Assembly: GCA_037414955.1 (NCBI GenBank)
Contig: JBBEWH010000028.1
Location: 26,429 to 50,428, forward strand
From: Actinomycetes bacterium KLBMP 9797
GTDB taxonomy: Bacteria; Actinomycetota; Actinomycetes; Mycobacteriales; Micromonosporaceae
Reading direction: 5' to 3'
DNA length: 24,000 bases
Shown here in pieces: positions 4,292-22,334 of this stretch. Numbering within the stretch: the stretch's first letter is position 1; every line of letters starts with the position of its first letter. The position numbers were made by a program, and so were the translations under genes. A model generated the notes under the pieces. The model searched no databases. It saw only the letters and a program-made list of their open reading frames with translations, and had not been told where the DNA came from.

Positions 4292-4353
4292 CCCATGATC
4301 GAGGCGTCCCTCAAGTAGCTATAACGACTACAAGGACGCCTTGATCATGAGGG
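4292..4353. repeat. Palindromic element A2 (imperfect copy)
   Basis: CATGATCGAGGCGTCC (4294-4309) pairs with GGACGCCTTGATCATG (4334-4349), with one G-T (G-U) position. The inner CTCAAGTAG..CTACAAG part pairs only partially. It starts 4 nt after the stop at 4286-4288. Confidence 0.9.
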
Positions 4354-4364
4354 GAGGTGGATTG

Positions 4365-5510
4365 ATGGCTGAGGCTCGCACGGTCGCTGAGGCGTACGCG
4401 TACCTGGAGTTGACCTTGCCACCCGGGGAGTCCTGGGTGGACTACGAGAAGTACACCACCCTGGACGCGGGACCGGACGGCGGCTATGTGCTGCGGTTCG
4501 ACGGGTGGTACGAGGGCGAGCGGCACCGGCTCGACGTGCCGGTCGTGGCGCGGGAGGGCCGGTCGACGCTGATCGACGCGGGGCAGTGGCACCTGCTGGA
4601 GGACGCGTACGCCGGGATGGCCGCCACCGGCGAGGAGCAGCTGGCGGGTGCCGCGCCGGACGACGAGACGTACCGGGCGATCGTGGGCGCGTGGGACGGC
4701 GCCGCGACGGCGGCGGCGGAGATCGAGTTGTTCCTGCCCGAGGGGGCGGACGAGCCCGCCGGCGAGGCGTTCTGGACCGCCGCGGGTCGCGGGGTGCGGG
4801 AGCACCGGCCGGAGGCGTTCGGGCGGGCGCGGCTCGCGGCGGCCCGCGCCGAGTACACGCGCCGCCGGGACGAGTTCGTCGCCCGGTACGGGATGGCCGC
4901 CGAGGAGACGGCGGGGGAGACCACCGCGGCTGAGCCGGTGCGGGCGGCGCGCACCTACGGCGAGGCGCACACCTTCATGGATCTACACCCGTGCGAGTGC
5001 GGTTCGGCCGCGTTCCCGCGCGGGCAGCTGGCGGTGCTCGGCAGCGACGACCACGGGGTCACGGTGCGGTTCGCCGGCCGGTGCGACGACTGCGACCGGT
5101 CGCGCGCGTTCGTGTTCCGGCTGCCGCCGCGTCCGGGTGTGCCGGCGGAGTCGCCGTATCTGTTCGGGTATCCGGAGGACGGGCCGTCGGAGCTGCTCGA
5201 CGCCGGCGAGTGGTTCGGTGTCGCCGAAGGCTACGCGGCGGTCGCCGACCTGGCCGTGGCGGAGGTGGACAGCGGCGACCAGGAGGACGTGGTCAAGCTG
5301 CTCACCTGCGCCGCGAGCGCCGTCGACGAGGTGCTGCGGTTCCTTCCGGCGGGCGCGGACGTGCTGCCGGCGGGCGCGCTGTGGACCGCGGCGAGTCGCG
5401 AGGGGTACGCGCGCGACCCGGCGCGGTTCCGGCGGGCGTCGCTGGAGCAGTGGCGGGCCGAGCGGTGGCGCCGGCTCGCCGAGTACGCGGGGCGTGGGGA
5501 ATCACCGTGA
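4365..5510 (+). CDS. Two-domain protein: a Cys-less degenerate copy followed by an intact copy of an uncharacterised CxxC...CxxC domain
   Basis: ORF track 4341..5510. ATG 4365 follows GGAGG (4353-4357) at good spacing. The C-terminal half reads RTYGEAHTFMDLHPCECG...GRCDDCDRSRAFVFRLP...PSELLDAGEW...VLRFLPAGAD..P..ALWTAASR. The N-terminal half aligns to it (RTVAEAYAYLELTLPPGES...GWYEGERHRLDVPVV...STLIDAGQW...IELFLPEGAD..AGEAFWTAAGR), but all four Cys are replaced. Confidence 0.7.
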   Translation: MAEARTVAEAYAYLELTLPPGESWVDYEKYTTLDAGPDGGYVLRFDGWYEGERHRLDVPVVAREGRSTLIDAGQWHLLEDAYAGMAATGEEQLAGAAPDDETYRAIVGAWDGAATAAAEIELFLPEGADEPAGEAFWTAAGRGVREHRPEAFGRARLAAARAEYTRRRDEFVARYGMAAEETAGETTAAEPVRAARTYGEAHTFMDLHPCECGSAAFPRGQLAVLGSDDHGVTVRFAGRCDDCDRSRAFVFRLPPRPGVPAESPYLFGYPEDGPSELLDAGEWFGVAEGYAAVADLAVAEVDSGDQEDVVKLLTCAASAVDEVLRFLPAGADVLPAGALWTAASREGYARDPARFRRASLEQWRAERWRRLAEYAGRGESP

Positions 5511-7559: not shown

Positions 7560-8111
7560 ATGGTGTTGCCGGTCGTCCGGACCCGGGACGAGGCTCATCT
7601 GTACATGGATTTGCGCCCGTGCGAGCGGTGCGGCAGCGCGGAGATCACCTGGCAGAGCCAGCTCACCCACGACGGCGGCGTGCCGGCGCGGCGCTACCAC
7701 GGCACGTGCGCGGGGTGCGGCGCGGCGCGCGAGTTCGTGTTCCGGCTGCCGGAGCGGCCGGCGGTGCCCGGCGACGACGGGGTGTTCTTCGGCGGCCCGG
7801 AGCCGTCGCAGCTGCTCGACGCGGGCGAGTGGCGGCTGATCGCCGACCTGGGCGTGCGGGAGGGTTCGGCGCCGCGCACCGGCGATCCGGCCGACGACGC
7901 CGAGCGCCAGCGGGCGTTCGCGCTCGCGCTGGCGGCGATGGATGAGATCATCAAGTTCATCCCGGACGGCGCGGACGGGGTGCCGGAGTCGGCGTTCTGG
8001 ACCGCGCGTGGGCGCGCCGAGTACGACCGGAACCCGGCCTCGTTCACCCGGGCGCGTCTCGAGATCTGGCGCGACACGTTCCGGGACGAGATGGAGATGC
8101 GGTTCGGATGA
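7560..8111 (+). CDS. Single-domain member of the CxxC...CxxC family
   Basis: ATG 7560 lies 3 nt after the upstream TAG and is preceded by GGTGGAGGA. Motifs: RTRDEAHLYMDLRPCERCG...GTCAGCGAAREFVFRLP...PSQLLDAGEW...IIKFIPDGADGVPESAFWTARGR. Confidence 0.75.
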   Translation: MVLPVVRTRDEAHLYMDLRPCERCGSAEITWQSQLTHDGGVPARRYHGTCAGCGAAREFVFRLPERPAVPGDDGVFFGGPEPSQLLDAGEWRLIADLGVREGSAPRTGDPADDAERQRAFALALAAMDEIIKFIPDGADGVPESAFWTARGRAEYDRNPASFTRARLEIWRDTFRDEMEMRFG

Positions 8112-9456: not shown

Positions 9457-11160
9457 TCAGATCTGGGAGAGGGCGGCTAGTTCGGCGCGGCGGGCCGCCG
9501 GGACGACGCCGAAGAGTTCGCCCTCCACCGTGGCCCGGGCATGGGCGTTGGCGACCACGAGCGCCCAGACCGGCGCCGTCACGTCCGCGAGCCGGCTGAC
9601 CCGGCGGGCCGCACCCGGCCCGTCGGTCTCGTCCGGTGCGGGGCGCGCCAACCGGGCCCAGGCGCCGGCCGGCGTGGCCCACAGCGGGGACGCGTCGTCG
9701 ACGAGCGTGTCGGCCGGCCCGGCGCCCTGGGCGGCGAGCAGCGCCGCGCACACCGACTGCGGGTCGTCGATCCCGAGCGCTCGCACGGTCTCGATGCCCA
9801 CCCGCCAGGCGACCAGGAAGTCGGGCCAGGTCTCCGTGGACAGTCGCGCCGCGTACCGCTCGGTCGCCGCCCGCAGGATCGGCCCGGCCATCGCGCGCAC
9901 CGTGGGCGGGGCGGTGAGGGCCAGCCCGTCGGGTACCGGTGGCCGGCCCTCGGGGCACCAGCCGGGCGGCAACGGGTACGCCCGGCGGTGCGCGATGTGC
10001 GCGCTGAGCGGGAGGCCGGCGAGATCCGTGGGGTAGACGTCGCGGGTGACCCGGTCGACGATCCAGCCCGGCTCGCGGGGCGGTGGACCGGCCATCCCGC
10101 CCGGCTCCGGCACCGGCGGGCCCATCGGCGTGATCGCCTCCGGCGGCGCGTCCCAGCGGACCTGGTAGACCAGCTCGGTGCCGGTGACGACGTAGCCGGT
10201 CTCCGGGCGGCCGGCCACCCACATGGTGTAGGCCCCGAACCGCGCCGGCCGGGCCCGCACCAGCGCGATCGCCTCCGCCGGGCTACCGACCGGCGCGACC
10301 GCGGCGTCCCACGACGGCGCGGCGTCCCACGACGGCGCGGCGCCCCGCGACGGCGCGGCGCCCTGCGACGGCGCGGCGTCCCACGACGGGGCGGCGCCCC
10401 ATGACGGCGCGGCGCCCGCGTCCCACGACCGGGCGCCCTCCGACGACGGGGCGGCCGCGTCCCACGACGGGGCGGGTTGCGACGACGGCGCGGCCTCCCG
10501 CGACGGCGCGGGCGCTGGCTCCGGTCGTGGTGGGGGCAGCAGACCATCGGGTACGCCGGGCGCCAGCAGGGCGATCTCGGCGCCGTCCAGGGGGCGGGGG
10601 AGCAGCAGTGGCAGCGGCGGCGGGAACCTCTGCCGCTCGGCGTGGATGTCGGCGCCGGCGGCCCGCGCGTGCAGCACGGCACCGCGCAGCAACGGCGGGA
10701 GCGCGGCGAGCTGCCGCAGATGAGGCGGCATCGCCGAGGCCGGCGGCGGGTCGGCGAGCGGCGCCGGCGGCGGGTCGCCGGCGCGGCGGTGGGTGCGCGC
10801 CTCGACCGGGATCATCGCGAGCAGCATCGCCGTCGCCCAGTCCAGCGGCCGCCGTTCGGCGAGGAGCGCCGTGCGCGCGCTGGTGCCGTCGTACCAGGGC
10901 AGCGCCACCGCGGCGGCGAGCAGCTCCGGGTCGGCGCACTCCTTCGCCAGCGCGGTCGCGGTGGTCACGCCGATCCGGAGGCGGGCCCGCATCAGCTCGC
11001 CCTCCCAGGCCGGGTCGGGCGGCGGCACCGGCGGCAGCGGTGGGCGCGGCTGCGCCGGCCGGAGCAGGTCCAGCACGAGCGCGTCGAAGTCGTCCCGCGC
11101 GGCGCGGGGGAACACCTTGCGCAGCTGGCGACCGGCGTCCGCCCACGCCCTCAGGACCAC
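9457..11160 (-). CDS. Pro/Ala-rich multidomain hypothetical protein with an internal hexapeptide tandem repeat
   Basis: In-frame part of ORF 9457..11595. GTG 11160 overlaps the stop of the upstream gene (GTGGTCCTGA). Upstream of that point the long ORF overlaps the real SUKH-3 gene in another frame and is Arg-rich. High GC3. It contains (AAPSWD)-type repeats and a YrhB-like stretch (PGWIVDRVTRDVYPTD). The start is uncertain; ATG MRARLRIGV is an alternative. Confidence 0.55.
   Translation of the reverse strand: MVLRAWADAGRQLRKVFPRAARDDFDALVLDLLRPAQPRPPLPPVPPPDPAWEGELMRARLRIGVTTATALAKECADPELLAAAVALPWYDGTSARTALLAERRPLDWATAMLLAMIPVEARTHRRAGDPPPAPLADPPPASAMPPHLRQLAALPPLLRGAVLHARAAGADIHAERQRFPPPLPLLLPRPLDGAEIALLAPGVPDGLLPPPRPEPAPAPSREAAPSSQPAPSWDAAAPSSEGARSWDAGAAPSWGAAPSWDAAPSQGAAPSRGAAPSWDAAPSWDAAVAPVGSPAEAIALVRARPARFGAYTMWVAGRPETGYVVTGTELVYQVRWDAPPEAITPMGPPVPEPGGMAGPPPREPGWIVDRVTRDVYPTDLAGLPLSAHIAHRRAYPLPPGWCPEGRPPVPDGLALTAPPTVRAMAGPILRAATERYAARLSTETWPDFLVAWRVGIETVRALGIDDPQSVCAALLAAQGAGPADTLVDDASPLWATPAGAWARLARPAPDETDGPGAARRVSRLADVTAPVWALVVANAHARATVEGELFGVVPAARRAELAALSQI
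10303..10513. repeat. 18-bp tandem repeat (six in-phase units, then degenerate units) inside the CDS at 9457..11160
   Basis: Units of GGCG(T/C)CCC(A/G)(C/T)GACGG(C/G)GC lie at 10303, 10321, 10339, 10357, 10375 and 10393, then continue with 3-6-nt indels to ~10513. On the minus strand they encode AAPSWD/GAAPSR-type hexapeptides. Confidence 0.9.
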
Positions 11161-12254
11161 CGCTGCTCTCCGGTGCCGCCGAGGAGGATCCGGCCGCCGG
11201 CGATCGGCATTTCCGCACGGGGCTCGGCGGCCAGCGCCGGGTCGACGCCGTAGTCGGTTTGATCGTTGAGGTAGAGCGCGGCGAAGCCCTGGTCGAGCAG
11301 CGGCTCGCCGTCGATGGTCACGACGTGGTACTCCTGCTCGACCGCCGCCCGCACCAGGTCCGGAGCCCGGCTGATGTGCAGGAACGCGACCTCCAGATCG
11401 GGGGTGAGGCCGGTGCAGGCGGCGCGGAACGCCTGCGCCACCGGCGGGTCGCTGTCGTCGGCGCTTGCCAGCTGGTCGAGGGCGTCCGGCTGCTCGAACG
11501 CGACCAGCACGACGGTGAGGAACTCCAGGTCGAACACCTGGATTTCGCACCGCACATCGCCCCACCCGGCCTCGAAGTGACCCGGGACGCTCCACATCTC
11601 AGTGGGCACGATCCCCATCCGGGTCAGCGTGTCGGGCAGCCAGACGTCGTACAGGTTGGCGGGTGAGCGCGGCAGGTAGAACGCCGCGCCGACCGGGCGT
11701 TTCAGCGACCACCGCGGGACCAGGCCGGCCTCCGCCAGCTCCGCTGTGGACGGCGCCAGCCAGGCCGGTCGGCGGTCGCCGGCGGGCGTGGCGGGGCGCG
11801 GATGCCGGCCGGTGACGAGCGTGTCCAGCGCTTCCTCGATGGTGGCGCCGAGCGACCATTCCCCGATGGGGTCGATGGCGAGCACCTCGCCCTGGTCGGT
11901 CAGCGCGAGCACCGCCTCGTCCAGACCCTCCACACCCAGCGGGATCAGCGGCGTGCCCAGCGCGCGGCCGGCGTCGATGAGCGTGTCGACGCTGTGCGCG
12001 GCCATCGTCGGGTCGAGCGCGAACGGCCGCGGATTGAGGTCTACGCCGGCGCCGCCCTCGAGCACCAGGCCGCCGAACTCCTCGAGCACCCGATCCGGCA
12101 GGCCGATGGCGGTCCACAAGCGACCGCCCAGCAGGCCCGGCCGGGCGACCGCCCGGCGGTACTCCGCCAGACGGTCGGGGGAGAGCCGGCGGCCGGGGTG
12201 CCAGCCGGCGGCGCGCAGGGCCGCCTCGACCGCCGGGGTGAAGCGCTCACTCAT
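11151..12254 (-). CDS. SUKH-3 family immunity protein fused to an unknown C-terminal domain
   Basis: ATG 12254 overlaps the deaminase stop by 8 nt (ATGAGTGA). The N-terminal ~165 aa read FTPAVEAALRAAGWHPGRR...VLEEFGGLVL...RPFALDP...LIPLGVEGLDEAVLALTDQGEVLAID...TIEEALDTLVTG. This is the SUKH-3 pattern as I recall it. Residues ~170-367 are unassigned. Confidence 0.7.
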   Translation of the reverse strand: MSERFTPAVEAALRAAGWHPGRRLSPDRLAEYRRAVARPGLLGGRLWTAIGLPDRVLEEFGGLVLEGGAGVDLNPRPFALDPTMAAHSVDTLIDAGRALGTPLIPLGVEGLDEAVLALTDQGEVLAIDPIGEWSLGATIEEALDTLVTGRHPRPATPAGDRRPAWLAPSTAELAEAGLVPRWSLKRPVGAAFYLPRSPANLYDVWLPDTLTRMGIVPTEMWSVPGHFEAGWGDVRCEIQVFDLEFLTVVLVAFEQPDALDQLASADDSDPPVAQAFRAACTGLTPDLEVAFLHISRAPDLVRAAVEQEYHVVTIDGEPLLDQGFAALYLNDQTDYGVDPALAAEPRAEMPIAGGRILLGGTGEQRWS

Positions 12255-13011
12255 CGCCGGCCCCGGGCGGCAACAGGGCGGACTCATCGCCGGCTCCGGG
12301 CGGCAACAGGGCGAACCCGAGGTGGCGCAGGAGGGCCAGGCAGGACACGCACGGCGGCGTGGTCTCGCCGCTGGTCGGGTCGCCGGGCTCGCGGACCCGG
12401 TAGGTCACCACCTCGGCGCCGCGCAGCAGGCCGGTGCGCGCCTCGTCGAGGGAGATCGGCGGCGCGCCGGCCGCTGCCCGGCGGGCGTCTTCGGCGTGCA
12501 GGGTGTCGGAGAGCGCGGCCACCTCGGAGCAGCGGTCGTTGCCGCGCTCCCGGTAGGCGACCGGCAGCTCCGCCAGAAACGTGCCGACCAGCGGATGCAG
12601 GTGTGGCGTGCCCCGGCCCTTCATCGACCGGGCCCGGCGCAGGCGCCCATCGGCCAGCTGGAGATGGGTGACGTTCTCCGGAAACGCGGCGCGGAGCCGG
12701 TCGCGCTCGGCCTGGACCACCGGGTCCCAGGTGAGCGGCGCCACCGGCGTCTCCGCGCGGAACTGCCGGTATCGCTCGGCGACGGTCGCCGGCGGCACGG
12801 ACGGCCAGTACGTCAGCTCGCCGCTCGCCTTGTCGACCACGATCTGCCCGGCGCCGAGCGCGGCGGGGTCACCCGCGGGCAGCTCGCGCCAGAACACGAA
12901 CCCCAGGTCGAACTCGTGCATGCCGAAGGCGCGCGTGACGCCTACCGGCTTGTCCTGGTAGACCCACGGTGCCGCGATCAGCTTGGCCTCCCACTCGCCG
13001 AGCACGCCCAC
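12247..13011 (-). CDS. YwqJ-like nucleic-acid deaminase toxin domain fused to an N-terminal YrhB-like domain
   Basis: GTG 13011 (or GTG 13005) follows GGGGAG. The C-terminal half carries the deaminase-superfamily zinc/catalytic signature: RCSEVAALSD (C161-S-E163) and/or LHAE (H172-A-E174), then ...AEVVTYRVREPG....PPCVSCLALLRHLGF (PCxxC, C221/C224). The N-terminal ~85 aa read FDLGFVFW...GAGQIVVDKASGELTYWPSVPPATVAERY, which is YrhB-like. No signal peptide, LXG or WXG-type N-terminus is evident. Confidence 0.65.
   Translation of the reverse strand: MGVLGEWEAKLIAAPWVYQDKPVGVTRAFGMHEFDLGFVFWRELPAGDPAALGAGQIVVDKASGELTYWPSVPPATVAERYRQFRAETPVAPLTWDPVVQAERDRLRAAFPENVTHLQLADGRLRRARSMKGRGTPHLHPLVGTFLAELPVAYRERGNDRCSEVAALSDTLHAEDARRAAAGAPPISLDEARTGLLRGAEVVTYRVREPGDPTSGETTPPCVSCLALLRHLGFALLPPGAGDESALLPPGAGDE
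12249..12314. repeat. 2 x 33-bp tandem duplication spanning the deaminase stop / SUKH-3 start junction
   Basis: 12249-12281 and 12282-12314 differ at 2 of 33 positions. They encode (S)ALLPPGAGDE twice at the deaminase C-terminus and duplicate the immunity-gene ATG (12254 and 12287). Confidence 0.9.
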
Positions 13012-13136
13012 CTCCCCGTAGCTAGCGCCACCCTAACGTGCCGCGTCACCGGCGCGTACGCCCGCCGTATCCTGTCCGACGTGGGCCAGACCGCGTCTTG
13101 CTCATGAGACGGGGTGTGATGGGGAGGGGACGAGAG

Positions 13137-14384
13137 ATGCGGGTACGGGCGGCGGCCGCCGGCCTGGCAGCGGTCTGCGCCGCCGCGGCCGCGTGGCACG
13201 GACCGGCGCCGGCGGTGGCGGCGCCGCGGTGTGCCGATCCCGGCCAGGAGATCGCGGAGGTCCCCTGGCACCAGCGGATGTTGGCGCCGGAGCGGATCTG
13301 GCCGTTCGCCCGGGGCAACCAGCTCGTCGTCGCGGTGCTCGACACCGGGGTCGACGCCCGCCACCCCCAGCTGGGTGACCGGGTGCTCGCCGGGTTCGAC
13401 GCGGTTCGCAACAGCGGGACCGGCAACACCGACTGTCTCGGCACCGGCACCCAGGTGGCGGGCGTGATCGCCGCCCAGCAGACCAGGGGGATCGGGTTCG
13501 TCGGGATGGCGCCGAACGCCCGGATCCTGCCCGTCAAGGTGCTCCCCGACGAGGGGGCCACCGACCGCATCGCCCAGCCCCAGATCCTGGCCCGCGGCAT
13601 CACGGCGGCGGTGGACCGGGGGGCCCGGGTGATCGTGTGCTCGGTCGTCACGTACACCGACAGCCCCGCGCTCGAGGCCGCGGTCGCCGGCGCCGTCCAG
13701 AAAGGCGCGGTGATCGTCGCGGCCGTGGGTGACGAGGGCAACCGCGACGACGGCGGCCCGACGCCGTACCCGGCGGCCTACGACGGCGTGGTCGGCGTCG
13801 GCGCGATCGGGCAGCAGGGCGTCCGCTGGCCGAACTCGCAAATCGGTGGGTACGTCGATGTGGTGGCCCCCGGTGCTGACGTGGTCACGCTCCAGCGCGC
13901 CAGCGGCATGACGACCGTGCGGGGCGGCACCGGCGTGGCCGCCGGTTTCGTCGGGGCCGCCGCGGCGCTGACTCGCGTACGCCGGCCCAACCTCGACCCG
14001 GCCGCGGTCCGCTACGTGCTGCAGGCCACCGCGATCGGCGGGACCAACCCGAACGAGTACGGGCAGGGCGTCATCAACCCGTACGCGGCGGTGACCGACC
14101 AGATCACGGCGGTGAGCCCGGCGCCGTTGCCGGCCGCGGAGCGCCCGTCCATCGAGGAGTCGCCCACCTGGCTGCGCAGCCGTAACCTGGCGCTGATCGG
14201 CGCCGGCGCGGCGGTGCTGGTGGTGCTGATCGTGCTGGCCGTGGCGGTCGCGCTGCCCCGGGGGCGGCGCCGCTTCTGGCGACCGGCGGTGGCGGCGAGC
14301 CCCGTGGACCGCCCCGAGGACGACGAGCCCGCTCCGCCAGCGCTCCTCTTCGACCAGCGGACGCAAGGAAGGGCCCCTTACTAA
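13137..14384 (+). CDS. mycP: Mycosin (MycP)-like subtilase homologue lacking the catalytic His and Ser (predicted pseudo-protease)
   Basis: ORF track 13038..14384. ATG 13137 follows GGGGAGGGGA and gives a signal-peptide-like N-terminus (MRVRAAAAGLAAVCAAAAAW). Subtilase Asp box VAVLDTGVD is present (GAC 13341-13343). The His box reads DCLGTGTQVAGVIAA where mycosins have DCxGHGTxVAG (Thr codon 13443-13445). The Ser box reads GGTGVAAGFVGAAAAL where GTSxAAPxVSG is expected (Gly codon 13932-13934). A C-terminal TM anchor (LALIGAGAAVLVVLIVLAVAVAL) is followed by RGRRR, as is typical of mycosins. Confidence 0.8.
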   Translation: MRVRAAAAGLAAVCAAAAAWHGPAPAVAAPRCADPGQEIAEVPWHQRMLAPERIWPFARGNQLVVAVLDTGVDARHPQLGDRVLAGFDAVRNSGTGNTDCLGTGTQVAGVIAAQQTRGIGFVGMAPNARILPVKVLPDEGATDRIAQPQILARGITAAVDRGARVIVCSVVTYTDSPALEAAVAGAVQKGAVIVAAVGDEGNRDDGGPTPYPAAYDGVVGVGAIGQQGVRWPNSQIGGYVDVVAPGADVVTLQRASGMTTVRGGTGVAAGFVGAAAALTRVRRPNLDPAAVRYVLQATAIGGTNPNEYGQGVINPYAAVTDQITAVSPAPLPAAERPSIEESPTWLRSRNLALIGAGAAVLVVLIVLAVAVALPRGRRRFWRPAVAASPVDRPEDDEPAPPALLFDQRTQGRAPY

Positions 14385-14487: not shown

Positions 14488-15882
14488 TCAGTTGGGCGCC
14501 GCCGCCGCCGCGGGGCGGGTCGCTGCCGCCGGGTCCAGCGCCGGGCCGCTGGGCAACTGGGCGACCAGCGTCGCCGGCACGTTGACCGCCTCGCCCGGCG
14601 GGTAGCCCAACGCCGCGAGGACCTCGGCGCTCGGCACGGCGAACTTGACGCCGATGTCGGTGACCACATAGAAGACGCCGGTCTCCGCGTCCGGCCCGCT
14701 CACCGCTCGCACGATAGCGACCTTCCCCGGCGGTACCAGGATCCGGTCGGCGAGCGGCAGCCGGTCCTCCGAGGCGCCAGTGGTGGGCGTCGCGGTGTCC
14801 AGCCCGGCCACGCTGGCACCCACCGAGATGGTGGGCGTCGCCACGGCGTCGGGCGTGACGGCGCACACCTGGTCGTCGTCGCCGGTGGAGAGCAGCGTCG
14901 GGGTTCTCTCCGGCGGGTACGGGTCGCCGGTGGCCTGCCGGCCGGTGGTCAGCGGGTTGGCCTCGGCGATCGAGATGGTCTCCGGCTCGTCGGGCCACTC
15001 GGCCGCCAGGATCGCCTGCTGGAGCGGCGTGATGCCGAGCAGGCCGTTGGCCTGGACCAGGAAGTACTGCGGACCCGATCCGGTCTGGGCGACGAGGACG
15101 TCGCCGTTCTTGCGGCCCGGCACGGCGCCCGACGCCTGGCCCCGGCCGGTGACCGCGATCCGGGAGATCGCGCCGCCGGCGGGCAGCGCGTTCAACCACG
15201 CGGTGCCGACCCGCATCGCCGACACGGAGCCGAACAGCGCCGGTACGAGGTTTCCCGGGTCCTGGATGGCGTGGCGCCGGCCGTGCCAGATCAGGTGCAC
15301 GGTGCCTTCCGACGCGTCCCGGACCAGCAGACCCTGATCACCGAGCGTGCGGCCACCGCTGGGGCTGGTGGCCACGGCCAGCGTGACCCGGCTGACGCGC
15401 TGGCCGGAGGTGGTGGTCTCGGGGGTGGCGCACACCGTCCACGGCATGCCGACCCGGTTCTTGATGTCGGGCAGCGAGGTCGGCGCGTTCGGGATGCCGA
15501 CCGGCACGCCGCGCGGCGCGTCGGAGAGCGACTTGGTGGACTCCCGGAACTGGCCGCCGGTGCCCCCGGCGATCAGCCGCGCCGACGCGTAGTTGAGCGT
15601 CGGGACCAGGACACCGTCGAGGTAGACGTAGGTGGCGCCGGTCTCCTTCTCGATGACCACGGAGCCTTGGGTCTTCCACCGGTCCGTGCCGACCTTGGTG
15701 ATGATGCCGTAGATGCCGAAGCCGGCGGCCACCAGGACGGCGATCATCAGACCGCCGAAGATCGCGCCGATGCCCCGGCGCAGCGGGGACTGCTGCGGGT
15801 CGGTCTCCCGCATGACGAACGCGGAGATGACCCGCTGGGTCAGGAACTGGTACGAGTGGAGCTGATCACGCCGGGTCGCCAC
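14488..15882 (-). CDS. eccB: Type VII secretion system protein EccB
   Basis: The N-terminus reads ATRRDQLHSYQFLTQRVISAFVMRE, followed by a single TM (IGAIFGGLMIAVLVAAGFGIYGII) and a large extracytoplasmic domain. GTG 15882 lies 7 nt after the eccD stop. Confidence 0.85.
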   Translation of the reverse strand: MATRRDQLHSYQFLTQRVISAFVMRETDPQQSPLRRGIGAIFGGLMIAVLVAAGFGIYGIITKVGTDRWKTQGSVVIEKETGATYVYLDGVLVPTLNYASARLIAGGTGGQFRESTKSLSDAPRGVPVGIPNAPTSLPDIKNRVGMPWTVCATPETTTSGQRVSRVTLAVATSPSGGRTLGDQGLLVRDASEGTVHLIWHGRRHAIQDPGNLVPALFGSVSAMRVGTAWLNALPAGGAISRIAVTGRGQASGAVPGRKNGDVLVAQTGSGPQYFLVQANGLLGITPLQQAILAAEWPDEPETISIAEANPLTTGRQATGDPYPPERTPTLLSTGDDDQVCAVTPDAVATPTISVGASVAGLDTATPTTGASEDRLPLADRILVPPGKVAIVRAVSGPDAETGVFYVVTDIGVKFAVPSAEVLAALGYPPGEAVNVPATLVAQLPSGPALDPAAATRPAAAAAPN

Positions 15883-15889
15883 GTCGCCG

Positions 15890-17299
15890 TCACCCGCCGA
15901 GCCTTGCGAACATTCCCTGGATCGCGCCGAACAGGCCGGTGACCGCGCAGGCCAGCGGGATGAGCGCCATGATGGCGAGCACGTCGAGGATGTCGGCGGC
16001 GCGGCCCAGGTACGGCGAGGGGGTGCGCCGGCTGTAGATGACTCCCGCGCCGAGCACCGCGGCGGCCACGACGACGAACACGATCAGCATCAGCAGCCGC
16101 CCGCCGCTCCCCTCGATGTCCAGCGCGTAGCCCAGCATCAGCACGGCGAGGCCGGCGATGCCGCTGACCAGCAACGGCACCCGCTGCTGGGGCAGGGCGA
16201 AGAGCCGGGCCCGCAGCAGCAGCGCACCGGCGGCGGCGAACGAGAGCAGGTCGGCGGAGAACGAGTTGTCGACGGTCACCAGGAAGACGATCGCCACGGC
16301 CGCCACCAGCCCGGCGGCGAGCAGCATGCCGGAGAGCAGCTCGGTGGCGCGGGCGACGGCGGCGAAGACGTCGGACCGCTTGGGCACCGGCCGGTCCTCG
16401 AGGATGTCTTCCGGCCGGTCCGGCAGCTCGGGCACCGGCAGGCGCCCCATCCAGCTCGCGATCAGCGGATAGCCGGGCAGCAGCCCGATCACCGTGGTCA
16501 GGGTCACGGCCGCGGCGCCCGCCGGTCCCATGCCGGCCATGCAGAGCAGCGCGGCGAGCAGCCCGCTGAGGCTGATGACGAGGCCGGCCATGAAGAAGCG
16601 CTGGATCGCCGCGACGCCGGTGTATCCGATGATGCTGAACACCAGCAGGGCGGCCGAGCCGAGCAGCAGGCTGGAGGCGCCGAGGCGGAACAGCCCGGTG
16701 TCGCCGGGCGCCGCGAGGAGCGCGCCACCGGCGAACGCGTACGGCAGACCGGCCGCCGCCACGACGGCGCCCGCGGCGGCGTCCGAGAACGCGCGGGACA
16801 GCACGATCCCGAGTACCGCCAGCGCGGCGGCCAGGGCGAGCCCGACTCCCGCGGGCAGTGGCCAGGGTGGACCGGAGAGCACGAGCACGACCAGGCCGAG
16901 GAGGAGCACGACGCTGGCGACCGCCAGGCCGCCCCGCCGGGTGGCCGCCGCGCCCCAGGACCGCCCGGCGCGCCGGGCGCCGCTGGCGATGACCTCCACC
17001 ACGTCGTCGTAGGCCAGCTCCGGCCAGTCGTCGCGGCGGGGCGCCAGGTGCAGCAGCTCGCCGTCGCGCACCCCTTGTACCGAAAGGTTGCGGGTGGGTT
17101 CCAGGATGGCGCCGGTCGCGCGGCGCAGCACCCAGCCGCCCTGCCGGTCACCGGTTTCACCGAGATCGTCGCCGGCGTGCCGCAGCAGGTGCGGCAGCAG
17201 CTCGGCCACGACGAGATTGTCGGGTAACGCCACATCCATGCGGCGCTTGGGCGCCGCCACCGTCACCCTGGCCAGACTGAGACCGCCCGGGGCAGTCAT
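15890..17299 (-). CDS. eccD: Type VII secretion integral membrane protein EccD
   Basis: ORF track 15890..17323. ATG 17299 follows GGGGAGGG. The N-terminal ubiquitin-like domain (LARVTVAAPKRRMDVALPDNLVVAELLPHLLRHAG) is followed by about 11 hydrophobic helices. Confidence 0.85.
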   Translation of the reverse strand: MTAPGGLSLARVTVAAPKRRMDVALPDNLVVAELLPHLLRHAGDDLGETGDRQGGWVLRRATGAILEPTRNLSVQGVRDGELLHLAPRRDDWPELAYDDVVEVIASGARRAGRSWGAAATRRGGLAVASVVLLLGLVVLVLSGPPWPLPAGVGLALAAALAVLGIVLSRAFSDAAAGAVVAAAGLPYAFAGGALLAAPGDTGLFRLGASSLLLGSAALLVFSIIGYTGVAAIQRFFMAGLVISLSGLLAALLCMAGMGPAGAAAVTLTTVIGLLPGYPLIASWMGRLPVPELPDRPEDILEDRPVPKRSDVFAAVARATELLSGMLLAAGLVAAVAIVFLVTVDNSFSADLLSFAAAGALLLRARLFALPQQRVPLLVSGIAGLAVLMLGYALDIEGSGGRLLMLIVFVVVAAAVLGAGVIYSRRTPSPYLGRAADILDVLAIMALIPLACAVTGLFGAIQGMFARLGG

Positions 17300-17439
17300 G
17301 TTGGTCACCCTCCCCGACACCATGCGATTCGCGGGCTCAACCTAGCATGCCCCTCAGCGCTCACCCGGAGCCATCGGTACTGGTGGGCGGTCTCTGTGGT
17401 GTCTATAGGATGAGGACCAACCTAGGGGAGGGTCGAGCG

Positions 17440-20400
17440 GTGACATCGGTGATCGTGAAGCGTCCACCGCGTCGCATCGCGCCGCCGCTGCCGAGCGGCG
17501 AGGTCGTGCTCGACCCGCCACCGGAGACCCCGCCACCCGCCGGCAAGGCGTGGGGCCGGATGCTCATGATGCTGCCGATGGCCGCCGGTGGCGCCGCCAT
17601 GGGTCTCATGATGGCCGGCCAGCGTGGCGGCGGTGGCCCCCTGACGTATGTGGCCGGTGGCATGTTCGGCATCTCCATCCTCGGGATGATGGGGATGATG
17701 TTCATGAACCAGAGCGGGCCCGGCAAGAAGGAGATGATCGAAGCCCGCCGGCAGTACATGCGCCGCCTGACCCAGCTCCGGGCCCAGCTGCGGGCCACCA
17801 TCCGCCAGCAGCGCGAGGCCATCTACTACCGGCATCCGGACCCAGGCGCCCTCTGGTCCACGGTGAGCGGGGGCCGGCTCTGGGAGCGCCGCCGCAACGA
17901 CGCCGACTTCTCGGTCGTCCGGGTCGGCCTGGGCGCGCAGGAGGTGGCCACCCCGCTGGTACCGCCGCAGACCCGCCCGGTCGACGAGCTGGAGCCGTTG
18001 TGCGCCATGGCGCTGCGCAAGTTCGTGGCGACGTACTCGGTGGTGCCGGACCTGCCGGTGGCGATCGCGCTGCGTGACTTCTCGCACGTCTACCTGCGCG
18101 GCCCGGAAGGGCCGGTGCGCGACATGGTCCGTGCCCTGCTCGCCCAGGTGGCGACGTTCCACGCGCCCGACGACCTGCTGGTCGGCCTGTGCCTGCCGGA
18201 CACCCAGCGGGCGCACTGGGAGTGGGCCAAGTGGCTGCCGCACGCGCAGCACCCGGCGAAGGTCGACGCGGTCGGCCCGATCCGGCTCTTCGCGCCGTCG
18301 GTGACCGCGCTGGAGGCGATGCTCGACGACGTGCTGGCCAACCGGCCACGATTCGACCCGTCCGCCGCCCACACGACCCCCGGGCCGCACGTCGTCGTGG
18401 TGATCGACGGCGGCTCCACGGCCGGTTCCGACCACCTGATGACCGAGGGCGGCGTGGCCGGGGTGACCATCCTCGACCTGTCCAACCAGCCGCCGCGGCT
18501 GCTCGACGACACGTCGGTGGTGCTCGACATCGCCGACGACGGCACCATCTCCGGCACCACGATGGACGGTTCGACGCAGGTCGGCACCGCCGACGCGCTG
18601 ACCCCGCCGGAGGCCGAGGTGCTGGCGCGCGAGCTGTCGCCGCTGCGGCTGTCGGCCGCGTCGTACGCGGACCAGTCGTCCACAGTGACCGTCGACACCG
18701 GCCTGGCCGATCTGCTGCAGCTCGGCTCGCCGCACGACTTCGACCTGGCCGGCATGTGGGCGAGCCGGCCCAACCGCGACCGGCTGCGGGTGCCGATCGG
18801 GGTAGGCCCCGACGGCCGCCCGATCGAGCTCGACCTGAAGGAGTCCGCGCAGGACGGCATGGGCCCGCACGGCCTGCTGGTCGGCGCGACCGGTTCCGGT
18901 AAGAGCGAGCTGCTGCGCACGCTGGTGCTGGCGCTCGCGGTCACGCACGACTCGGAGATCCTCAACTTCGTGCTGGTCGACTTCAAGGGTGGCGCGACGT
19001 TCACCGCCCTCGACCGGCTGCCGCACACCAGCGCCGTCATCACGAACCTGTCCGAAGAGCTGTCGCTGGTCGACCGCATGCTGGGCGCGATCCAGGGCGA
19101 GCTGGTCCGCCGGCAGGAGCTGCTGCGCCGGGCCGGCAACTACGCCTCGCAGCGCGACTACGAGCGGGCGCGCGCCTCCGGTGTGCCGCTGGCGCCGCTG
19201 CCGAGCCTGCTGGTGATCGTCGACGAGTTCAGCGAGCTGCTCGCCGCGCGGCCCGACTTCATCGACATGTTCGTCCAGATCGGACGGTTGGGCCGGTCGC
19301 TGGGCATCCACCTGCTGCTCGCCTCGCAGCGCCTGGAGGAGGGCCGGCTGCGCGGCCTGGAGACCCACCTGTCGTACCGGGTGGGTCTGCGGACGTTCTC
19401 CTCGATGGACAGCCGGGCGGTGCTGGGCGTGCCCGACGCGTACGAGCTGCCCCGCGCGCCCGGCCATGGTTACCTGCGCACCGGCACCGAGGGACTGATC
19501 CGCTTCCGCGCGGCGTACGTGTCCGGCGTGGTCCGGCAGGACGGCTTCCAGCCGACCGTGGGCGGCCGCCCGGTCGACCCGGTGCGCGACTTCACGACGT
19601 ACTACGTGGCCCCGCCGCGCGACGACCGGCCGGCCGAGCAGCAGGAGGCCGAGCCCGAGGAGACGGCGGTCGGCGACACCCTGCTCGACGTGCTGGTGCA
19701 GCGGATGGAGGGGCAGGGGCCGCCGGCGCACCAGGTGTGGCTGCCGCCGCTCGCCGAGCCGCCGACGCTGGGCCAGATGCTGGCGCCGATCGTGCAGTCG
19801 ACCGAGCGCGGCCTGACCACCCAGGGCATCAAGCGCGAGCGGGCCCTGCACGGGCTGGTCGGCGTCATCGACAAGCCGTTCGAGCAGCTGCGCGAGCCGA
19901 TGTGGCTGGACCTGTCCGGCGCCGCCGGCAACCTGGTCGTGGTCGGTGGGCCGCAGAGCGGCAAGACCAACTTCCTGCGCACCCTCATCGGCAGCCTGGC
20001 GCTGCGGCACACGCCGCGCGAGGTGCAGTTCTACTGCCTCGACTTCGGCGGCGGCGGCCTGGTCGCGATGGGCGGCCTGCCGCACATCGGCGGCGTGGCG
20101 ACCCGGCGCGAGGTCGACAAGGTCCGCCGCACGATCGCCGAGATGTACGGGTTGATGCAGGCCCGGGAGGCCACGTTCGCCAACCACGGCGTCGAGGGGG
20201 TCGCCGCGTACCGGCGGGCCAAGGCGCAGGGCCGGTTCGCCGACGACCCGTGGGGCGACGTCTTCCTCGTGGTGGACGGCTGGTCCACGCTGCGCGCCGA
20301 GTTCGAAGACCTCGAGCCGTTGATCAACGAGCTGGCCAGCCGCGGTCTCGGCTACGGCATCCACGTCCTGGCCGGCACCAACCGGTGGATGGACGTCCGC

Positions 20401-21405
20401 GCGGCGGTCCGCGACATGTTCGGCACCAAGATCGAACTGCGGCTGGGTGAGCCGAGCGACTCGGTCATCAACCGGCGGGCCGCGGTCAACGTGCCCGAGC
20501 AGACGCCCGGCCGCGGCCTCACGCCGGACGGGTTCCACTTCCTCGCCGGCCTGCCCCGCATCGACGGTGAGCAGCGGGTCGACGACCTGTCCGACGCGGT
20601 GGCCGAGTTCGTCAAGCTCGCCCAGACGTACTGGACGCAGCAGCCGGCCCCGGCCGTGCGGCTGCTGCCCGCCGAGCTGCCGTTCGAGGCGCTGCCCGCG
20701 CCGCGCCGGGGCCGGCTGCCGATCGGCATCGCCGAGACCGACCTCCAGCCGGTCCACCTGGACTTCGACGCCGAGCCGCACGCGCTGCTGTTCGGCGACA
20801 TCGAGAGCGGCAAGAGTTCGTTCCTGCGCAGCCTCGCGAAGATGATCGTGCACAGCTACGACCCGAGCCAGGCCCGGATCATCACCGTCGACTTCCGGCG
20901 CAGCCTGCTCGGCAGCGTCGAGTCGTCGCACCTCATCGGCATGGGCACCGCCCAGCAGTCCACCGCCGACCTCATCAAGCAGGTCACCACGGTGATGAAG
21001 GAGCGGCTGCCCGGGCCGAACGTGACGCCTGAGCAGCTGCGCAACCGGAGCTGGTGGAAGGGCCCCGACCTGTACCTGCTGATCGACGACTACGACCTCG
21101 TCGCCGGCTCGATGAGCAACCCGCTCACGCCGCTCCTGGAATACCTGCCGCAGGCCCGCGACATCGGCCTGCACCTGGTGCTCACCCGCCGGATCGGCGG
21201 CGCCGGCCGGGCGATGTTCGACCCGGTGATCGGGCGGATCCGCGAGCTGGCCTCGCCGGGCCTGATGATGTCCGGACCGCGGGAGGAGGGCGCGCTGTTC
21301 GGCAACATGCGGCCGCAGATCCTGCCGCCCGGCCGGGCCTGGCTGTTCACCCGCCGCGAGGGCGCCCGCCTCGTCCAACTCGCCTGGACACCCCCCGCTC
21401 ACTAA
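17440..21405 (+). CDS. eccC: Type VII secretion FtsK/SpoIIIE-family ATPase EccC
   Basis: ORF track 17347..21405. GTG 17440 follows GGGGAGGG (17425-17432). There are two N-terminal TM helices and three P-loop domains: GATGSGKSE with VIVDEFSEL; GGPQSGKTN with LVVDGWSTL; GDIESGKSS with LLIDDYDLV. Confidence 0.9.
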   Translation: MTSVIVKRPPRRIAPPLPSGEVVLDPPPETPPPAGKAWGRMLMMLPMAAGGAAMGLMMAGQRGGGGPLTYVAGGMFGISILGMMGMMFMNQSGPGKKEMIEARRQYMRRLTQLRAQLRATIRQQREAIYYRHPDPGALWSTVSGGRLWERRRNDADFSVVRVGLGAQEVATPLVPPQTRPVDELEPLCAMALRKFVATYSVVPDLPVAIALRDFSHVYLRGPEGPVRDMVRALLAQVATFHAPDDLLVGLCLPDTQRAHWEWAKWLPHAQHPAKVDAVGPIRLFAPSVTALEAMLDDVLANRPRFDPSAAHTTPGPHVVVVIDGGSTAGSDHLMTEGGVAGVTILDLSNQPPRLLDDTSVVLDIADDGTISGTTMDGSTQVGTADALTPPEAEVLARELSPLRLSAASYADQSSTVTVDTGLADLLQLGSPHDFDLAGMWASRPNRDRLRVPIGVGPDGRPIELDLKESAQDGMGPHGLLVGATGSGKSELLRTLVLALAVTHDSEILNFVLVDFKGGATFTALDRLPHTSAVITNLSEELSLVDRMLGAIQGELVRRQELLRRAGNYASQRDYERARASGVPLAPLPSLLVIVDEFSELLAARPDFIDMFVQIGRLGRSLGIHLLLASQRLEEGRLRGLETHLSYRVGLRTFSSMDSRAVLGVPDAYELPRAPGHGYLRTGTEGLIRFRAAYVSGVVRQDGFQPTVGGRPVDPVRDFTTYYVAPPRDDRPAEQQEAEPEETAVGDTLLDVLVQRMEGQGPPAHQVWLPPLAEPPTLGQMLAPIVQSTERGLTTQGIKRERALHGLVGVIDKPFEQLREPMWLDLSGAAGNLVVVGGPQSGKTNFLRTLIGSLALRHTPREVQFYCLDFGGGGLVAMGGLPHIGGVATRREVDKVRRTIAEMYGLMQAREATFANHGVEGVAAYRRAKAQGRFADDPWGDVFLVVDGWSTLRAEFEDLEPLINELASRGLGYGIHVLAGTNRWMDVRAAVRDMFGTKIELRLGEPSDSVINRRAAVNVPEQTPGRGLTPDGFHFLAGLPRIDGEQRVDDLSDAVAEFVKLAQTYWTQQPAPAVRLLPAELPFEALPAPRRGRLPIGIAETDLQPVHLDFDAEPHALLFGDIESGKSSFLRSLAKMIVHSYDPSQARIITVDFRRSLLGSVESSHLIGMGTAQQSTADLIKQVTTVMKERLPGPNVTPEQLRNRSWWKGPDLYLLIDDYDLVAGSMSNPLTPLLEYLPQARDIGLHLVLTRRIGGAGRAMFDPVIGRIRELASPGLMMSGPREEGALFGNMRPQILPPGRAWLFTRREGARLVQLAWTPPAH

Positions 21406-21468: not shown

Positions 21469-21581
21469 CTTCACCACGGCGTGACGCCGGGATGACCGCG
21501 GTCGGGAACATCTACTCCGTGACGCACAGATCTCCATTTCTGACTCGTGTTGCGACCGGCCCCGAAGGCGGGAGGACCTCC

Positions 21582-22334
21582 ATGCCGGTGATCCGGATGT
21601 TGGGACCGCTGGAGATCGGTGAGGACCCGGGATGGTATACCGTGCCGACCCGCCGCAAGCAGCGCGAACTGCTCGCGCTGTTGCTGGCGCGGGTCGGCGC
21701 GGTGGTGAGCTCCGACCAGATCATGGACAGCCTTTGGGGTGCCCGGCCGCCGGCCTCGGCGCGGGCCAACCTACACACCTACGTGTCGGGGCTGCGGCAG
21801 ATCATGGCGAGAGCGGCACCGTCGTCCACCGCGCGGCCGGAGTTCGTGCGGTACGGCTACCGGCTGCGCCTGTTGCCCGACGAGTGTGACGCGACGGTGT
21901 TCGAGCGCTTGGCCGGCGAAGGGCGGGCGGCGCTGGCCCAGCGCCGGCCGGCGGTCGCGGTCGAGCAGCTCACCCAAGCGCTGGCGCTGTGGCGTGGGCC
22001 GGTACTGGAAGGGGTCGAGCGGCACGACTGGCTCACGCCGACGGTCGCCCGCTTGGAAGAGGGCCGGCTGTCGGCGCTGGAGGACCTTGTCCAGGGCCGC
22101 ATCGTCCTGGGGCAGTACGCCGGGCTGGCGGTCGAACTGGTGGCCGCGACCGCCCGGCACCCGCTGCGGGAACGGCTCTGGGAGCAGCTGATGGTGACGC
22201 TGCACCGCACCGGGCGGCGGACGGAGGCGCTGTCCGCGTACGACCGGCTGCACGAGCTGCTGCACCGCGAGCTCGGCGCCGCCCCGAGCGCAACCGTCCG
22301 CCAGCTGCGTAGCCGCATCCTCGCGGACACCTGA
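21582..22334 (+). CDS. SARP (AfsR/DnrI/RedD) family transcriptional regulator: OmpR-type winged helix plus BTAD
   Basis: ORF track 21492..22334. ATG 21582 follows GGGAGG. Motifs: MLGPLEI..., RRKQRELLALLLARVGAVVSSDQIMDSLWG, ARANLHTYVSGLRQ, then the BTAD region (ALALWRGPVLEGV... HPLRERLWEQLMVTLHRTGRRTEALSAYDRLHELLHRELGAAPSATVRQL). Confidence 0.85.
   Translation: MPVIRMLGPLEIGEDPGWYTVPTRRKQRELLALLLARVGAVVSSDQIMDSLWGARPPASARANLHTYVSGLRQIMARAAPSSTARPEFVRYGYRLRLLPDECDATVFERLAGEGRAALAQRRPAVAVEQLTQALALWRGPVLEGVERHDWLTPTVARLEEGRLSALEDLVQGRIVLGQYAGLAVELVAATARHPLRERLWEQLMVTLHRTGRRTEALSAYDRLHELLHRELGAAPSATVRQLRSRILADT

Follow-up and report, generated by a model that had tools for sequence, protein, structure and literature searches.

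A mycosin with a degenerate active site, probably a structural subunit, encoded in a probably ESX-4-like type VII secretion cluster of Micromonosporaceae

Why a type VII secretion system (T7SS) gene cluster should carry a subtilase that has lost most of its catalytic residues is the question raised by the gene at positions 13137–14384 (forward strand) of the window, i.e. the whole 24-kb stretch of DNA that was analysed. The ORF is intact and encodes a protein of 415 aa, with a GC3 of 0.92, which is identical to a protein recorded at NCBI for 'Actinomycetes bacterium KLBMP 9797'. A start at the ATG at 13137 is supported by a GGAGG ribosome-binding site (13123–13127, forward) 9 nt upstream, and it agrees with the length of the NCBI protein. 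A scan for promoters and terminators around the gene found none, which is rather uninformative in an actinomycete of 75% GC, and Rfam and tRNA scans of the 24-kb window gave no matches.

The product, referred to here as the pseudo-mycosin, begins with an Ala-rich, signal-peptide-like N terminus (13137–13226, forward; predicted helix at residues 2–20), which would be cleaved after MRVRAAAAGLAAVCAAAAAWHGPAPAVAA, immediately before a Pro. A C-terminal transmembrane anchor was located at residues 351–373 (14187–14255, forward), with a Kyte–Doolittle maximum of 3.0 over 19 residues and a predicted helix at residues 343–380 in the AlphaFold model, followed by the sequence RGRRRFW. The predicted cytoplasmic tail contains a conserved motif, E..EPxPPxxLFD (14316–14354, forward), whose residues E394, E397 and L404 are 82–96% conserved across the clade of dead mycosins described below. 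This tail motif (PPxxLFD) was considered as a novelty of the dead clade and rejected, because related tails were found in some intact cluster-embedded mycosins and also in the intact forms at the clade's base. Neither C32 nor C100 varies among the dead-clade proteins, nor do the equivalent C26 and C95 among intact relatives, and a disulfide probably joins the Cys of the N-terminal extension to that of the DC box.

The protein was assigned by profile, sequence and structure searches. Pfam PF00082 (Peptidase_S8) matched with 2.9e-35 over profile positions 1–288 of 288, and the top NCBIfam family was TIGR03921 (T7SS_mycosin), at 261.8 bits about 200 bits over the next family and under the curated equivalog cut-off of 278.75 bits. 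Five other members of the dead clade scored 208–268 bits, and intact relatives passed the cut-off with 301–329 bits. A weak match to the NCBIfam family CspC_non_triad (E=0.0019) was also obtained. The AlphaFold model (pLDDT 82 overall, above 90 in the core) was matched by Foldseek to subtilisins with a TM score of 0.92 and an rmsd of 2.1 Å, and MycP1 (4kb5) was aligned over 344 columns. Subtilisins outranked MycP in both the sequence and the fold searches, owing to the shorter loops of the pseudo-mycosin, and the alignment to MycP1, MycP3 and MycP5 starts inside the N-terminal extension. By BLASTP, an intact Micromonospora mycosin was 45% identical over 366 residues, with the N-terminal extension, the DC..GT box, the anchor and the RGRRRxWRP stretch in common.

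The mycobacterial mycosins MycP1, MycP3 and MycP5 (PDB 4kb5, 4j94, 4hvl, 4kg7 and 7np7/7npr) show the same S8 fold, N-terminal extension and conserved Cys pair, and the same C-terminal anchor with an Arg-rich stop-transfer sequence behind it, and their genes lie in ecc clusters next to eccB, eccD and eccC. However, they retain Asp-His-Ser and the oxyanion Asn, whereas the pseudo-mycosin retains Asp alone and has shorter loops. Intact mycosins of Micromonosporaceae (e.g. L011, L022 and L031), which NCBI labels 'type VII secretion-associated serine protease mycosin', are 41–48% identical to the pseudo-mycosin and share its architecture, but they keep the D-H-N-S residues and are devoid of the C-terminal tail motif.

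For assignment of the catalytic columns, the protein was compared by phmmer with AK.1 protease, intracellular subtilisin and subtilisin Carlsberg, and by BLASTP with the intact Micromonospora mycosin; a PDB search gave no direct MycP alignment for these columns, so the assignment rests on the subtilisins and the Micromonospora protein. Both sets of alignments agreed on the columns of Asp69, Thr103, Gly266 and Gly270. Asp69 (13341–13343, forward; VAVLDTGVD) aligns to the Asp column and is the sole remaining residue of the triad. The catalytic His column is occupied by Thr103 (13443–13445, forward; DCLGTGTQVAG vs. DCAGHGTGVAS) and the catalytic Ser column by Gly266 (13932–13934, forward; GGTGVAAGFV vs. 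EGTSYATPFV), with Gly270 instead of the usual Pro; Asp199 (13731–13733, forward; AAVGDEG vs. AAAGNL) is found in the column of the oxyanion-hole Asn. No other His or Ser falls in the catalytic columns, and as the whole protein has His only at positions 21, 45 and 76, a register shift cannot rebuild the triad. The initial annotation, which had described an intact ORF with signal peptide, Asp box and membrane anchor in which His, Ser and the following Pro were replaced and canonical hydrolysis was lost, agrees with these results in every point. As judged from the alignments, the pseudo-mycosin is incapable of Ser-His-Asp proteolysis, His, Ser and the oxyanion Asn all being replaced, and it probably has no residual enzymatic activity of any kind. 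Val167 occupies the column of a second Asn that is invariant among intact mycosins; this and the loss of the oxyanion Asn are two losses beyond those described initially.

As regards the relatives, a single-protein scan of genome contigs found no loci, and its alignment-based repeat yielded 80. None of the 120 best database homologues had an intact triad, and these 120 belong to Micromonosporaceae wherever the source names the organism. In a neighbour-joining (NJ) tree, both His and Ser were absent in 146 of the 160 members of one clade, which spans at least seven named genera and has intact Micromonosporaceae mycosins as its nearest sister group. In 34 of 40 bootstraps, the dead sequences grouped apart from every canonical reference mycosin. 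As an exactly monophyletic group, the NJ clade of 164 members was not stable to bootstrapping (1%), and the placement within it of fully intact (DHNS) forms was not robust. The tree and the homologues place the pseudo-mycosin in a dead-mycosin clade that is old and widespread in Micromonosporaceae; it is no isolated natural mutant.

Within this dead clade (146 members) the His column contains T, L, S, Q, I, V, A or R, and the Ser column G (86) or A (50), compared to His and Ser in 134 of 134 intact mycosins; the oxyanion Asn column contains Asp in 87% of the clade vs. Asn in 100% of the intact mycosins. Asp69 is retained in 80 of the 146 members and lost in the other 45%. Only four positions invariant in intact mycosins are lost in the clade (H103, N167, N199 and S266), and the neighbouring D99, C100, G102, G104, T105 and T265 remain invariant. 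Residues fixed across the clade in or near the site are D199 (87%), G270 (90%) and W231 (83%), and nowhere in the dead-clade alignment was a Ser, Cys, Lys or His found whose conservation is specific to the clade.

The dead mycosin is kept under purifying selection at a rate matching that of eccB: in two locus pairs its dN/dS was 0.41 and 0.32, and eccB gave 0.37 and 0.31 in these pairs. The values for intact mycosins in close pairs were lower (0.19–0.23), which indicates some relaxation. Homologues at 45–67% identity stay full length, and more than 140 full-length ones share the dead state. With its fold kept, its catalytic columns lost and its sequence under purifying selection, the protein would be classed as a pseudoenzyme (pseudoprotease).

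The pseudo-mycosin gene adjoins eccB (14488–15882, reverse; Pfam T7SS_ESX1_EccB 6.5e-85, near full length), eccD (15890–17323, reverse), with a YukD ubiquitin-like domain and the EccD membrane domain (Pfam 8.5e-24 and 4e-89, respectively), and eccC (17347–21405, forward), with three FtsK/SpoIIIE ATPase domains (Pfam FtsK_SpoIIIE 4.7e-87, in three stretches) and an intact Walker A motif at each of residues 513, 867 and 1150. No EccE or WXG100 genes were found within the 24-kb window. The initial annotation had placed the gene in an otherwise intact ecc cluster, and within the window this is shown for eccB, eccD and eccC. In relatives with the dead-mycosin cluster EccE is encoded downstream of eccC, and in one locus (L015) two ORFs with weak, tblastn-only similarity to WXG100 lie just upstream of the dead mycosin. 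The order mycP-like (forward), eccB (reverse), eccD (reverse) and eccC (forward) was found in 10 related loci (L001–L004, L008, L015, L039, L042, L081 and L084), and in L083 it holds as far as the contig extends. The mycosins of these loci are all dead or half-dead. One dead member (L005) was found without any ecc gene within 10 kb. ESX-4-like clusters have been described in Micromonosporales (PMC4791881). Of the genes looked for in such a cluster (eccB, eccC, eccD, mycP and a WXG100 pair, with EccE optional), the window has eccB, eccC, eccD and the mycP-like gene. The cluster type with the pseudo-mycosin is most likely an ESX-4-like T7SS that is widespread in Micromonosporaceae.

Two further elements of the window were compared with the related loci. 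A Cys-rich (CxxC...CxxC) protein of 183 aa (7560–8111, forward), without a match to any Pfam or NCBIfam family, gave tblastn matches in L001–L004, L008, L023, L081, L083 and L084, and in relatives its homologue is encoded directly upstream of the dead mycosin. A toxin/immunity-like pair (11151–13011, reverse), divergent from the mycosin gene and formed by a YwqJ-like deaminase (12247–13011; Pfam 2.7e-24) and a SUKH-3 immunity protein (11151–12287; Pfam 1.9e-26), was not conserved in related loci. The idea that catalysis was lost to spare giant secreted toxins on their way past the cap found no specific support, as ORFs of 1,800–3,200 aa flank intact cluster-embedded mycosins too.

At least five related organisms encode both dead and intact mycosins, namely M. 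sonneratiae, M. mangrovi, M. sp. NPDC092111, M. wenchangensis and M. sp. NPDC051925, and M. sonneratiae has a third copy, with DHTS residues (L012). The intact Micromonospora mycosin gene has a pair of WXG100 genes as neighbours, together with one EccE-like and one holin-like gene, and no eccB, eccC or eccD was found within 10 kb of it. Because of this co-occurrence in relatives, proteolysis may be supplied in trans by an intact mycosin encoded elsewhere, and the system may be served by another mycosin besides the dead copy. Evolution has most likely separated the structural job of a mycosin from its protease job within the pseudo-mycosin; the natural separation of functions proposed in the initial annotation applies to the protein, but not necessarily to the cell.

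Regarding its role, we consider it probable (roughly 70%), by analogy with the mycobacterial systems, that the pseudo-mycosin is a non-catalytic structural mycosin subunit of the ESX-4-like cluster and keeps the EccB/C/D complex stable. Secretion persists when the active site of MycP1 or MycP5 is mutated by engineering, whereas deletion of the mycosin destabilises the membrane complex (PMC5082899), and MycP5, as a trimer, forms a cap that stabilises the EccB5 dome, with its membrane helix touching EccD5 (PMC8131196). Following this model, the signal peptide would export the pseudo-mycosin and the C-terminal membrane helix would tether its mycosin-fold domain; the extracytoplasmic domain would dock on the periplasmic domains of EccB and the membrane helix on EccD, as in MycP1 and MycP5, and both contacts together would stabilise the assembled secretion complex. 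This docking and stabilising mechanism is suggested by the gene order and by the co-evolutionary rate. The closest functional parallels are the MycP1 S354A (M. marinum) and MycP5 S461A mutants, in which a dead mycosin still supports secretion (van Winden et al. 2016, PMC5082899), although these are single-residue, laboratory-made changes in diderm mycobacteria, whereas the loss in the pseudo-mycosin is natural, multi-residue and clade-wide in monoderm Micromonosporaceae. In the EssB/YukC pseudokinase of the firmicute T7SSb (PMC9600267 and PMC11217815), a dead-enzyme fold likewise serves as a structural part of the membrane machinery of type VII secretion, but in this case the fold is that of a kinase, the T7SS is of a different type and the location is cytoplasmic.

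Other roles have to be weighed against this structural one. The dead mycosin could cooperate with, or regulate, an active paralogue, either in mixed caps or by competing for the docking site and thereby tuning substrate processing, and the sharing of organisms by dead and intact mycosins, with a third copy in M. sonneratiae, would fit such an arrangement. The absence of eccB, eccC and eccD around the intact Micromonospora gene, which has WXG100 and EccE-like neighbours, the trimeric state of MycP5 and the increase in ESX-1 secretion upon inactivation of MycP1 (PMC5082899) point in the same direction. However, each locus type has its own EccE-like gene, and L015 its own WXG100-like pair, so two separate systems fit better, and no sign of physical or regulatory coupling was found; we regard the paralogue explanation as unlikely. 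Less likely still is a pseudoprotease that binds ligands or peptides, whose old cleft would hold or sense substrates uncut as in CspC and CspA of Clostridioides difficile, despite the invariance of the flanking residues, the new fixation of D199, G270 and W231 and the weak CspC_non_triad match. These Csp proteins are a documented S8 precedent for degenerate sites retained for a non-catalytic role (bioRxiv 10.1101/855569), but they are soluble, act in spore germination signalling and belong to another S8 subfamily, the likeness being one of principle only. Moreover, the free variation of the His and Ser columns and the frequent loss of Asp69 argue against a precisely kept pocket, and MycP1 and MycP5 mutants with the groove blocked by bulky residues still secrete (PMC5082899).

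Cleavage of peptide bonds by a non-canonical mechanism with other residues, for which Thr265 together with Asp69 or Asp199 would be close to the former active site, has its precedent in some apparent pseudoenzymes that reviews describe as having migrated catalytic residues (PMC10211241), but it is very improbable here: the only His of the mature domain is the non-catalytic H76, the oxyanion Asn is lost too, no candidate Ser, Cys, Lys or His is conserved specifically in the clade and Thr265 is just as invariant in intact subtilases. Finally, a recent inactivation en route to a pseudogene, or a sequencing artefact, is hardly credible. The dN/dS of the dead mycosin is somewhat above that of the intact ones, but it stays well under 1 and is the same as for eccB; in addition, the ORF is intact with a normal GC3, the many full-length homologues are equally dead and independent genomes and metagenomes show the same pattern of substitutions.

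The structural role leads to a broader proposal, which we put forward tentatively and at somewhat less than even odds: that these clusters represent a distinct, unrecognised actinobacterial T7SS subtype in Micromonosporaceae, often flanked by polymorphic toxins, in which the sole in-system mycosin is purely structural. In this proposal catalysis would no longer have been needed from the base of the lineage onwards and would then have been lost repeatedly and independently, with Ser and the oxyanion Asn going before His, and His before Asp. If true, evolution would have proved that what mycosins essentially and ancestrally do in T7SS is architectural and not proteolytic; the reason for their essentiality has so far been argued mainly from engineered point mutants and one mycobacterial cryo-EM structure. 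A natural dead lineage that stays full length, in the cluster and constrained like EccB points to the scaffold role as the selected one. Such a lineage could also be useful for structures of the EccB–mycosin interface without proteolysis, as a comparative data set for docking-relevant residues, and for a natural 'resurrection' experiment in which the triad is put back to see what breaks. A literature search, with most subscription journals outside its coverage, turned up no publication that describes an inactive or pseudo mycosin. The NCBI label of the dead-clade proteins is only 'S8 family serine peptidase', and T7SS surveys using that label would either miss the mycosin or count a non-protease as a protease.

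The pseudo-mycosin gene (13137-14384, plus strand) is an intact ORF of 415 aa with a GGAGG 9 nt 5′ of its ATG and a GC3 of 0.92, typical for real genes of the 73% GC window, and its product is identical to an NCBI protein entry. This product matched the whole Peptidase_S8 profile of Pfam (2.9e-35), and its top NCBIfam model was TIGR03921 (T7SS mycosin equivalog) with 261.8 bits, under the curated cut-off of 278.75 bits, the next family lying about 200 bits below. A clear hydrophobic anchor was detected at residues 351-373, followed by RGRRRFW. The AlphaFold model, obtained from a 30-sequence alignment (pLDDT 82, core >90), superposes on subtilisins with a TM of 0.92 and an rmsd of about 2.1 Å; among the structure matches listed, the longest was with M. 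smegmatis MycP1 (4kb5, 344 aligned columns). In a fragment search, matches to MycP1, MycP3 and MycP5 started in the N-terminal extension.

The catalytic columns were assigned from phmmer alignments to AK.1 protease, an intracellular subtilisin and subtilisin Carlsberg, all three concordant, and BLASTP against an intact Micromonospora mycosin (45% identity, 366 residues) gave the same columns. The Asp column keeps Asp69 (VAVLDTGVD), as in the intact mycosin, whereas the His column is occupied by Thr103 (DCLGTGTQVAG vs. DCAGHGTGVAS in the intact protein), the oxyanion Asn column by Asp199 (AAVGDEG vs. AAAGNL) and the Ser column by Gly266 (GGTGVAAGFV vs. EGTSYATPFV), with Gly270 in this same box replacing the Pro that follows Ser. 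The residue numbers and motifs of the initial annotation, which read Thr for His and Gly for Ser, were correct according to both the subtilisin and the intact mycosin alignments; losses absent from it were the oxyanion Asn and a second Asn (position 167), invariant in intact mycosins. As the only His of the protein are 21, 45 and 76, and H76 is the non-catalytic His of an HPxL motif, no register shift restores the triad and no other His falls in the catalytic column. Judged from its sequence, the pseudo-mycosin appears to have lost everything needed for proteolysis.

The loss is not confined to this protein. Among the 120 best database homologues (45-67% identical) no intact triad was found, His being kept in one and a Ser in three; those whose source names the organism belong to Micromonospora, Phytohabitans, Pilimelia, Plantactinospora, Rugosimonospora, Dactylosporangium and Actinoplanes. 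In an NJ tree built with the catalytic columns masked, 146 of the 160 sequences of one group were without both His and Ser, its sister group being intact Micromonosporaceae mycosins, and 34 of 40 bootstrap replicates separated the dead sequences from all canonical reference loci. The only positions conserved in at least 80% of intact mycosins that this clade has lost are H103, N167, N199 and S266, while the flanking D99, C100, G102, G104, T105 and T265 are invariant. The His column holds T/L/S/Q/I/V/A/R, the Ser column G/A, and Asp69 is retained in only 80 of the 146 dead members. Over 100 NJ bootstraps, parsimony required a minimum of six changes for the His column, four for the Ser column and 10 for that of Asp, and 32 of 40 replicates placed two homologues with Asp and His and without Ser (P0088 and P0126) inside the clade. 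These counts and nested forms suggest an early stage at which catalysis could be dispensed with, and then repeated, stepwise losses, in trees that are simple NJ reconstructions where the near-base placement of fully intact members is not robust. Two cluster-embedded mycosins keep Asp, His and Ser with the oxyanion Asn replaced by Thr (locus L012, 9950-11233) or Asp (locus L023, 9935-11227; 276.8 bits against TIGR03921, just below the cut-off), and may be an early stage of this loss.

The pseudo-mycosin descends from mycosins and would work like one, but two formal marks of the family are missing, as it has no complete catalytic triad and stays under the cut-off of TIGR03921. The low score is systematic, dead members scoring 208-268 bits vs. 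301-329 for intact ones, and consequently they are publicly annotated as generic S8 peptidases.

Downstream of the pseudo-mycosin gene lie eccB (14488-15882, minus strand), eccD with a YukD domain (15890-17323, minus) and eccC (17347-21405, plus), the latter encoding three FtsK domains with three intact Walker A motifs; the 24-kb window contained neither WXG100 nor EccE genes. A profile scan with one genome per species yielded 80 loci, eight of which (L001-L004, L008, L015, L039 and L042) had the exact window gene order, and in all eight both His and Ser were gone. In M. mangrovi (L081) and Phytohabitans suffuscus (L084) the genes have this order as well, with EccE next in line; L001, L003, L008 and L015 likewise have an EccE-like gene after eccC, and two WXG100-like ORFs are located just upstream of the dead mycosin in L015. 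On the basis of these genes and the window order, relatives appear to have a complete ESX-4-like cluster with the dead mycosin as the only in-cluster mycosin. A metagenome contig (L083) keeps the window order up to its end, with a mycosin that has Asp and His and is without Ser.

When dN/dS was calculated by Nei-Gojobori for two close locus pairs, the dead mycosin gave 0.41 in L003/L004 (eccB 0.37, eccD 0.27, eccC 0.12) and 0.32 in L002/L008 (eccB 0.31, eccD 0.16, eccC 0.12), compared to 0.19-0.23 for intact mycosins of similar divergence. Therefore, the dead mycosin is somewhat relaxed relative to intact ones. Its constraint is nevertheless as strong as that of a genuine core component, with values far from the neutral expectation, so that ongoing pseudogenisation of the gene, raised in the initial annotation as a recent pseudogene with relaxed dN/dS, can practically be set aside.

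In the ESX-5 structure, a MycP5 trimer caps and stabilises the EccB5 dome and the MycP5 membrane helix is bound to EccD5 (PMC8131196). By analogy, the pseudo-mycosin would dock on the secretion complex and probably act as a non-catalytic scaffold of the T7SS complex (probability about 0.7); all features that this role requires are present, from the export signal, the fold and the anchor to the linkage with eccB and eccD. Joint action with an active paralogue is a less likely alternative, favoured by the coexistence of intact and dead mycosins in five related organisms. A role in binding peptides without cutting them, like that of the Csp pseudoproteases, is more doubtful still, and residual non-canonical hydrolysis is very improbable in a protein with the His complement described.

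The coexisting copies were retrieved with a profile of intact Micromonosporaceae mycosins, which recovered proteins named "type VII secretion-associated serine protease mycosin" by NCBI. Both forms occur in M. sonneratiae, M. mangrovi, M. sp. NPDC092111 and M. wenchangensis, and M. sp. NPDC051925 also has an intact mycosin, its dead copy (locus L005) being G-Q-D-A in the Asp-His-oxyanion Asn-Ser columns with no ecc gene within 10 kb. A third M. sonneratiae copy, D-H-T-S, belongs to another ecc cluster (L012). Next to the intact Micromonospora mycosin lie genes for two WXG100 proteins, an EccE-like and a holin-like protein, with no eccB, eccC or eccD within 10 kb. In the compact loci of this type (L011, 9884-14294; L082, 6912-14379) the EccE-like protein has 600 aa and the holin-like protein four helices, L082 adding a 978-aa SseB-domain protein.

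No report of an inactive, pseudo- or non-catalytic mycosin was found in full-text searches covering few subscription journals, nor is a dead mycosin noted in ESX-evolution and T7SS-diversity papers mentioning mycosins or Micromonosporales. The clade agrees with the current mycosin model and does not overturn it, providing independent evolutionary evidence and experimental material.

Regarding accessory genes, a cytoplasmic CxxC...CxxC protein of about 180 aa (7560-8111, plus), also present as the two halves of 4341-5510 (plus), matched no Pfam or NCBIfam family. Its homologues lie directly upstream of the dead mycosin in L001-L004, L008, L081, L083 and L084, with another in L023 and none in the Actinoplanes loci; in the window about 5 kb separate it from the mycosin gene, filled by genes that related loci do not have. 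It may serve this T7SS subtype as an accessory component. In L003 and L008, a protein with an N-terminal WQPA(N/T)(D/E)TE motif directly precedes the dead mycosin, and in L005 this motif opens a long ORF (9662-11221) containing the mycosin, explained either by fusion of the upstream gene or by a start set too far 5′. At 17323-17347, only 23 bp separate the annotated start codons of eccD and eccC, compared to about 145 bp in L001, so one of them is probably placed too far upstream.

Upstream of the pseudo-mycosin gene and divergent from it, 11151-13011 (minus) encodes a SUKH-3 immunity protein and, overlapping it by 41 bp, a YwqJ-like deaminase of 254 aa whose domain covers residues 109-231 and whose N terminus shows no recognisable WXG or LXG secretion domain; this pair was found in no related locus. 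Downstream of the SUKH-3 gene, the third-codon-position GC of 9457-~11150 (0.94-0.99; 75-80% GC overall) indicates a real minus-strand gene, which has no Pfam or NCBIfam match. At 96-2937, a gene for a 610-aa protein, in which a long C-terminal extension adjoins an APH-like kinase domain, precedes a stretch of low GC (63%) whose small ORFs (1931-2293 and 2290-2937) have atypical codon usage; this may be another foreign toxin/immunity-type cassette. On the other side, a SARP/BTAD regulator (21492-22334) separates eccC from an RHS/YD-repeat gene (22446-23978, minus) that runs past the right window edge; after its RHS-associated core domain (residues 352-428), a C-terminal tip of about 80 aa is probably a toxin. 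At this position relatives have variable genes, then EccE. Very large proteins (>2,600 to >5,300 aa), one with a WXG100_2 domain, flank dead-mycosin clusters (L081, 1-8527; L084, 1-8232; L003, 13-8433), as do toxin/immunity domains (WHH with SMI1_KNR4; ADP-ribosyl exotoxin), consistent with a T7SS exporting interbacterial toxins; giant ORFs of this kind also occur beside intact mycosins that are embedded in clusters.
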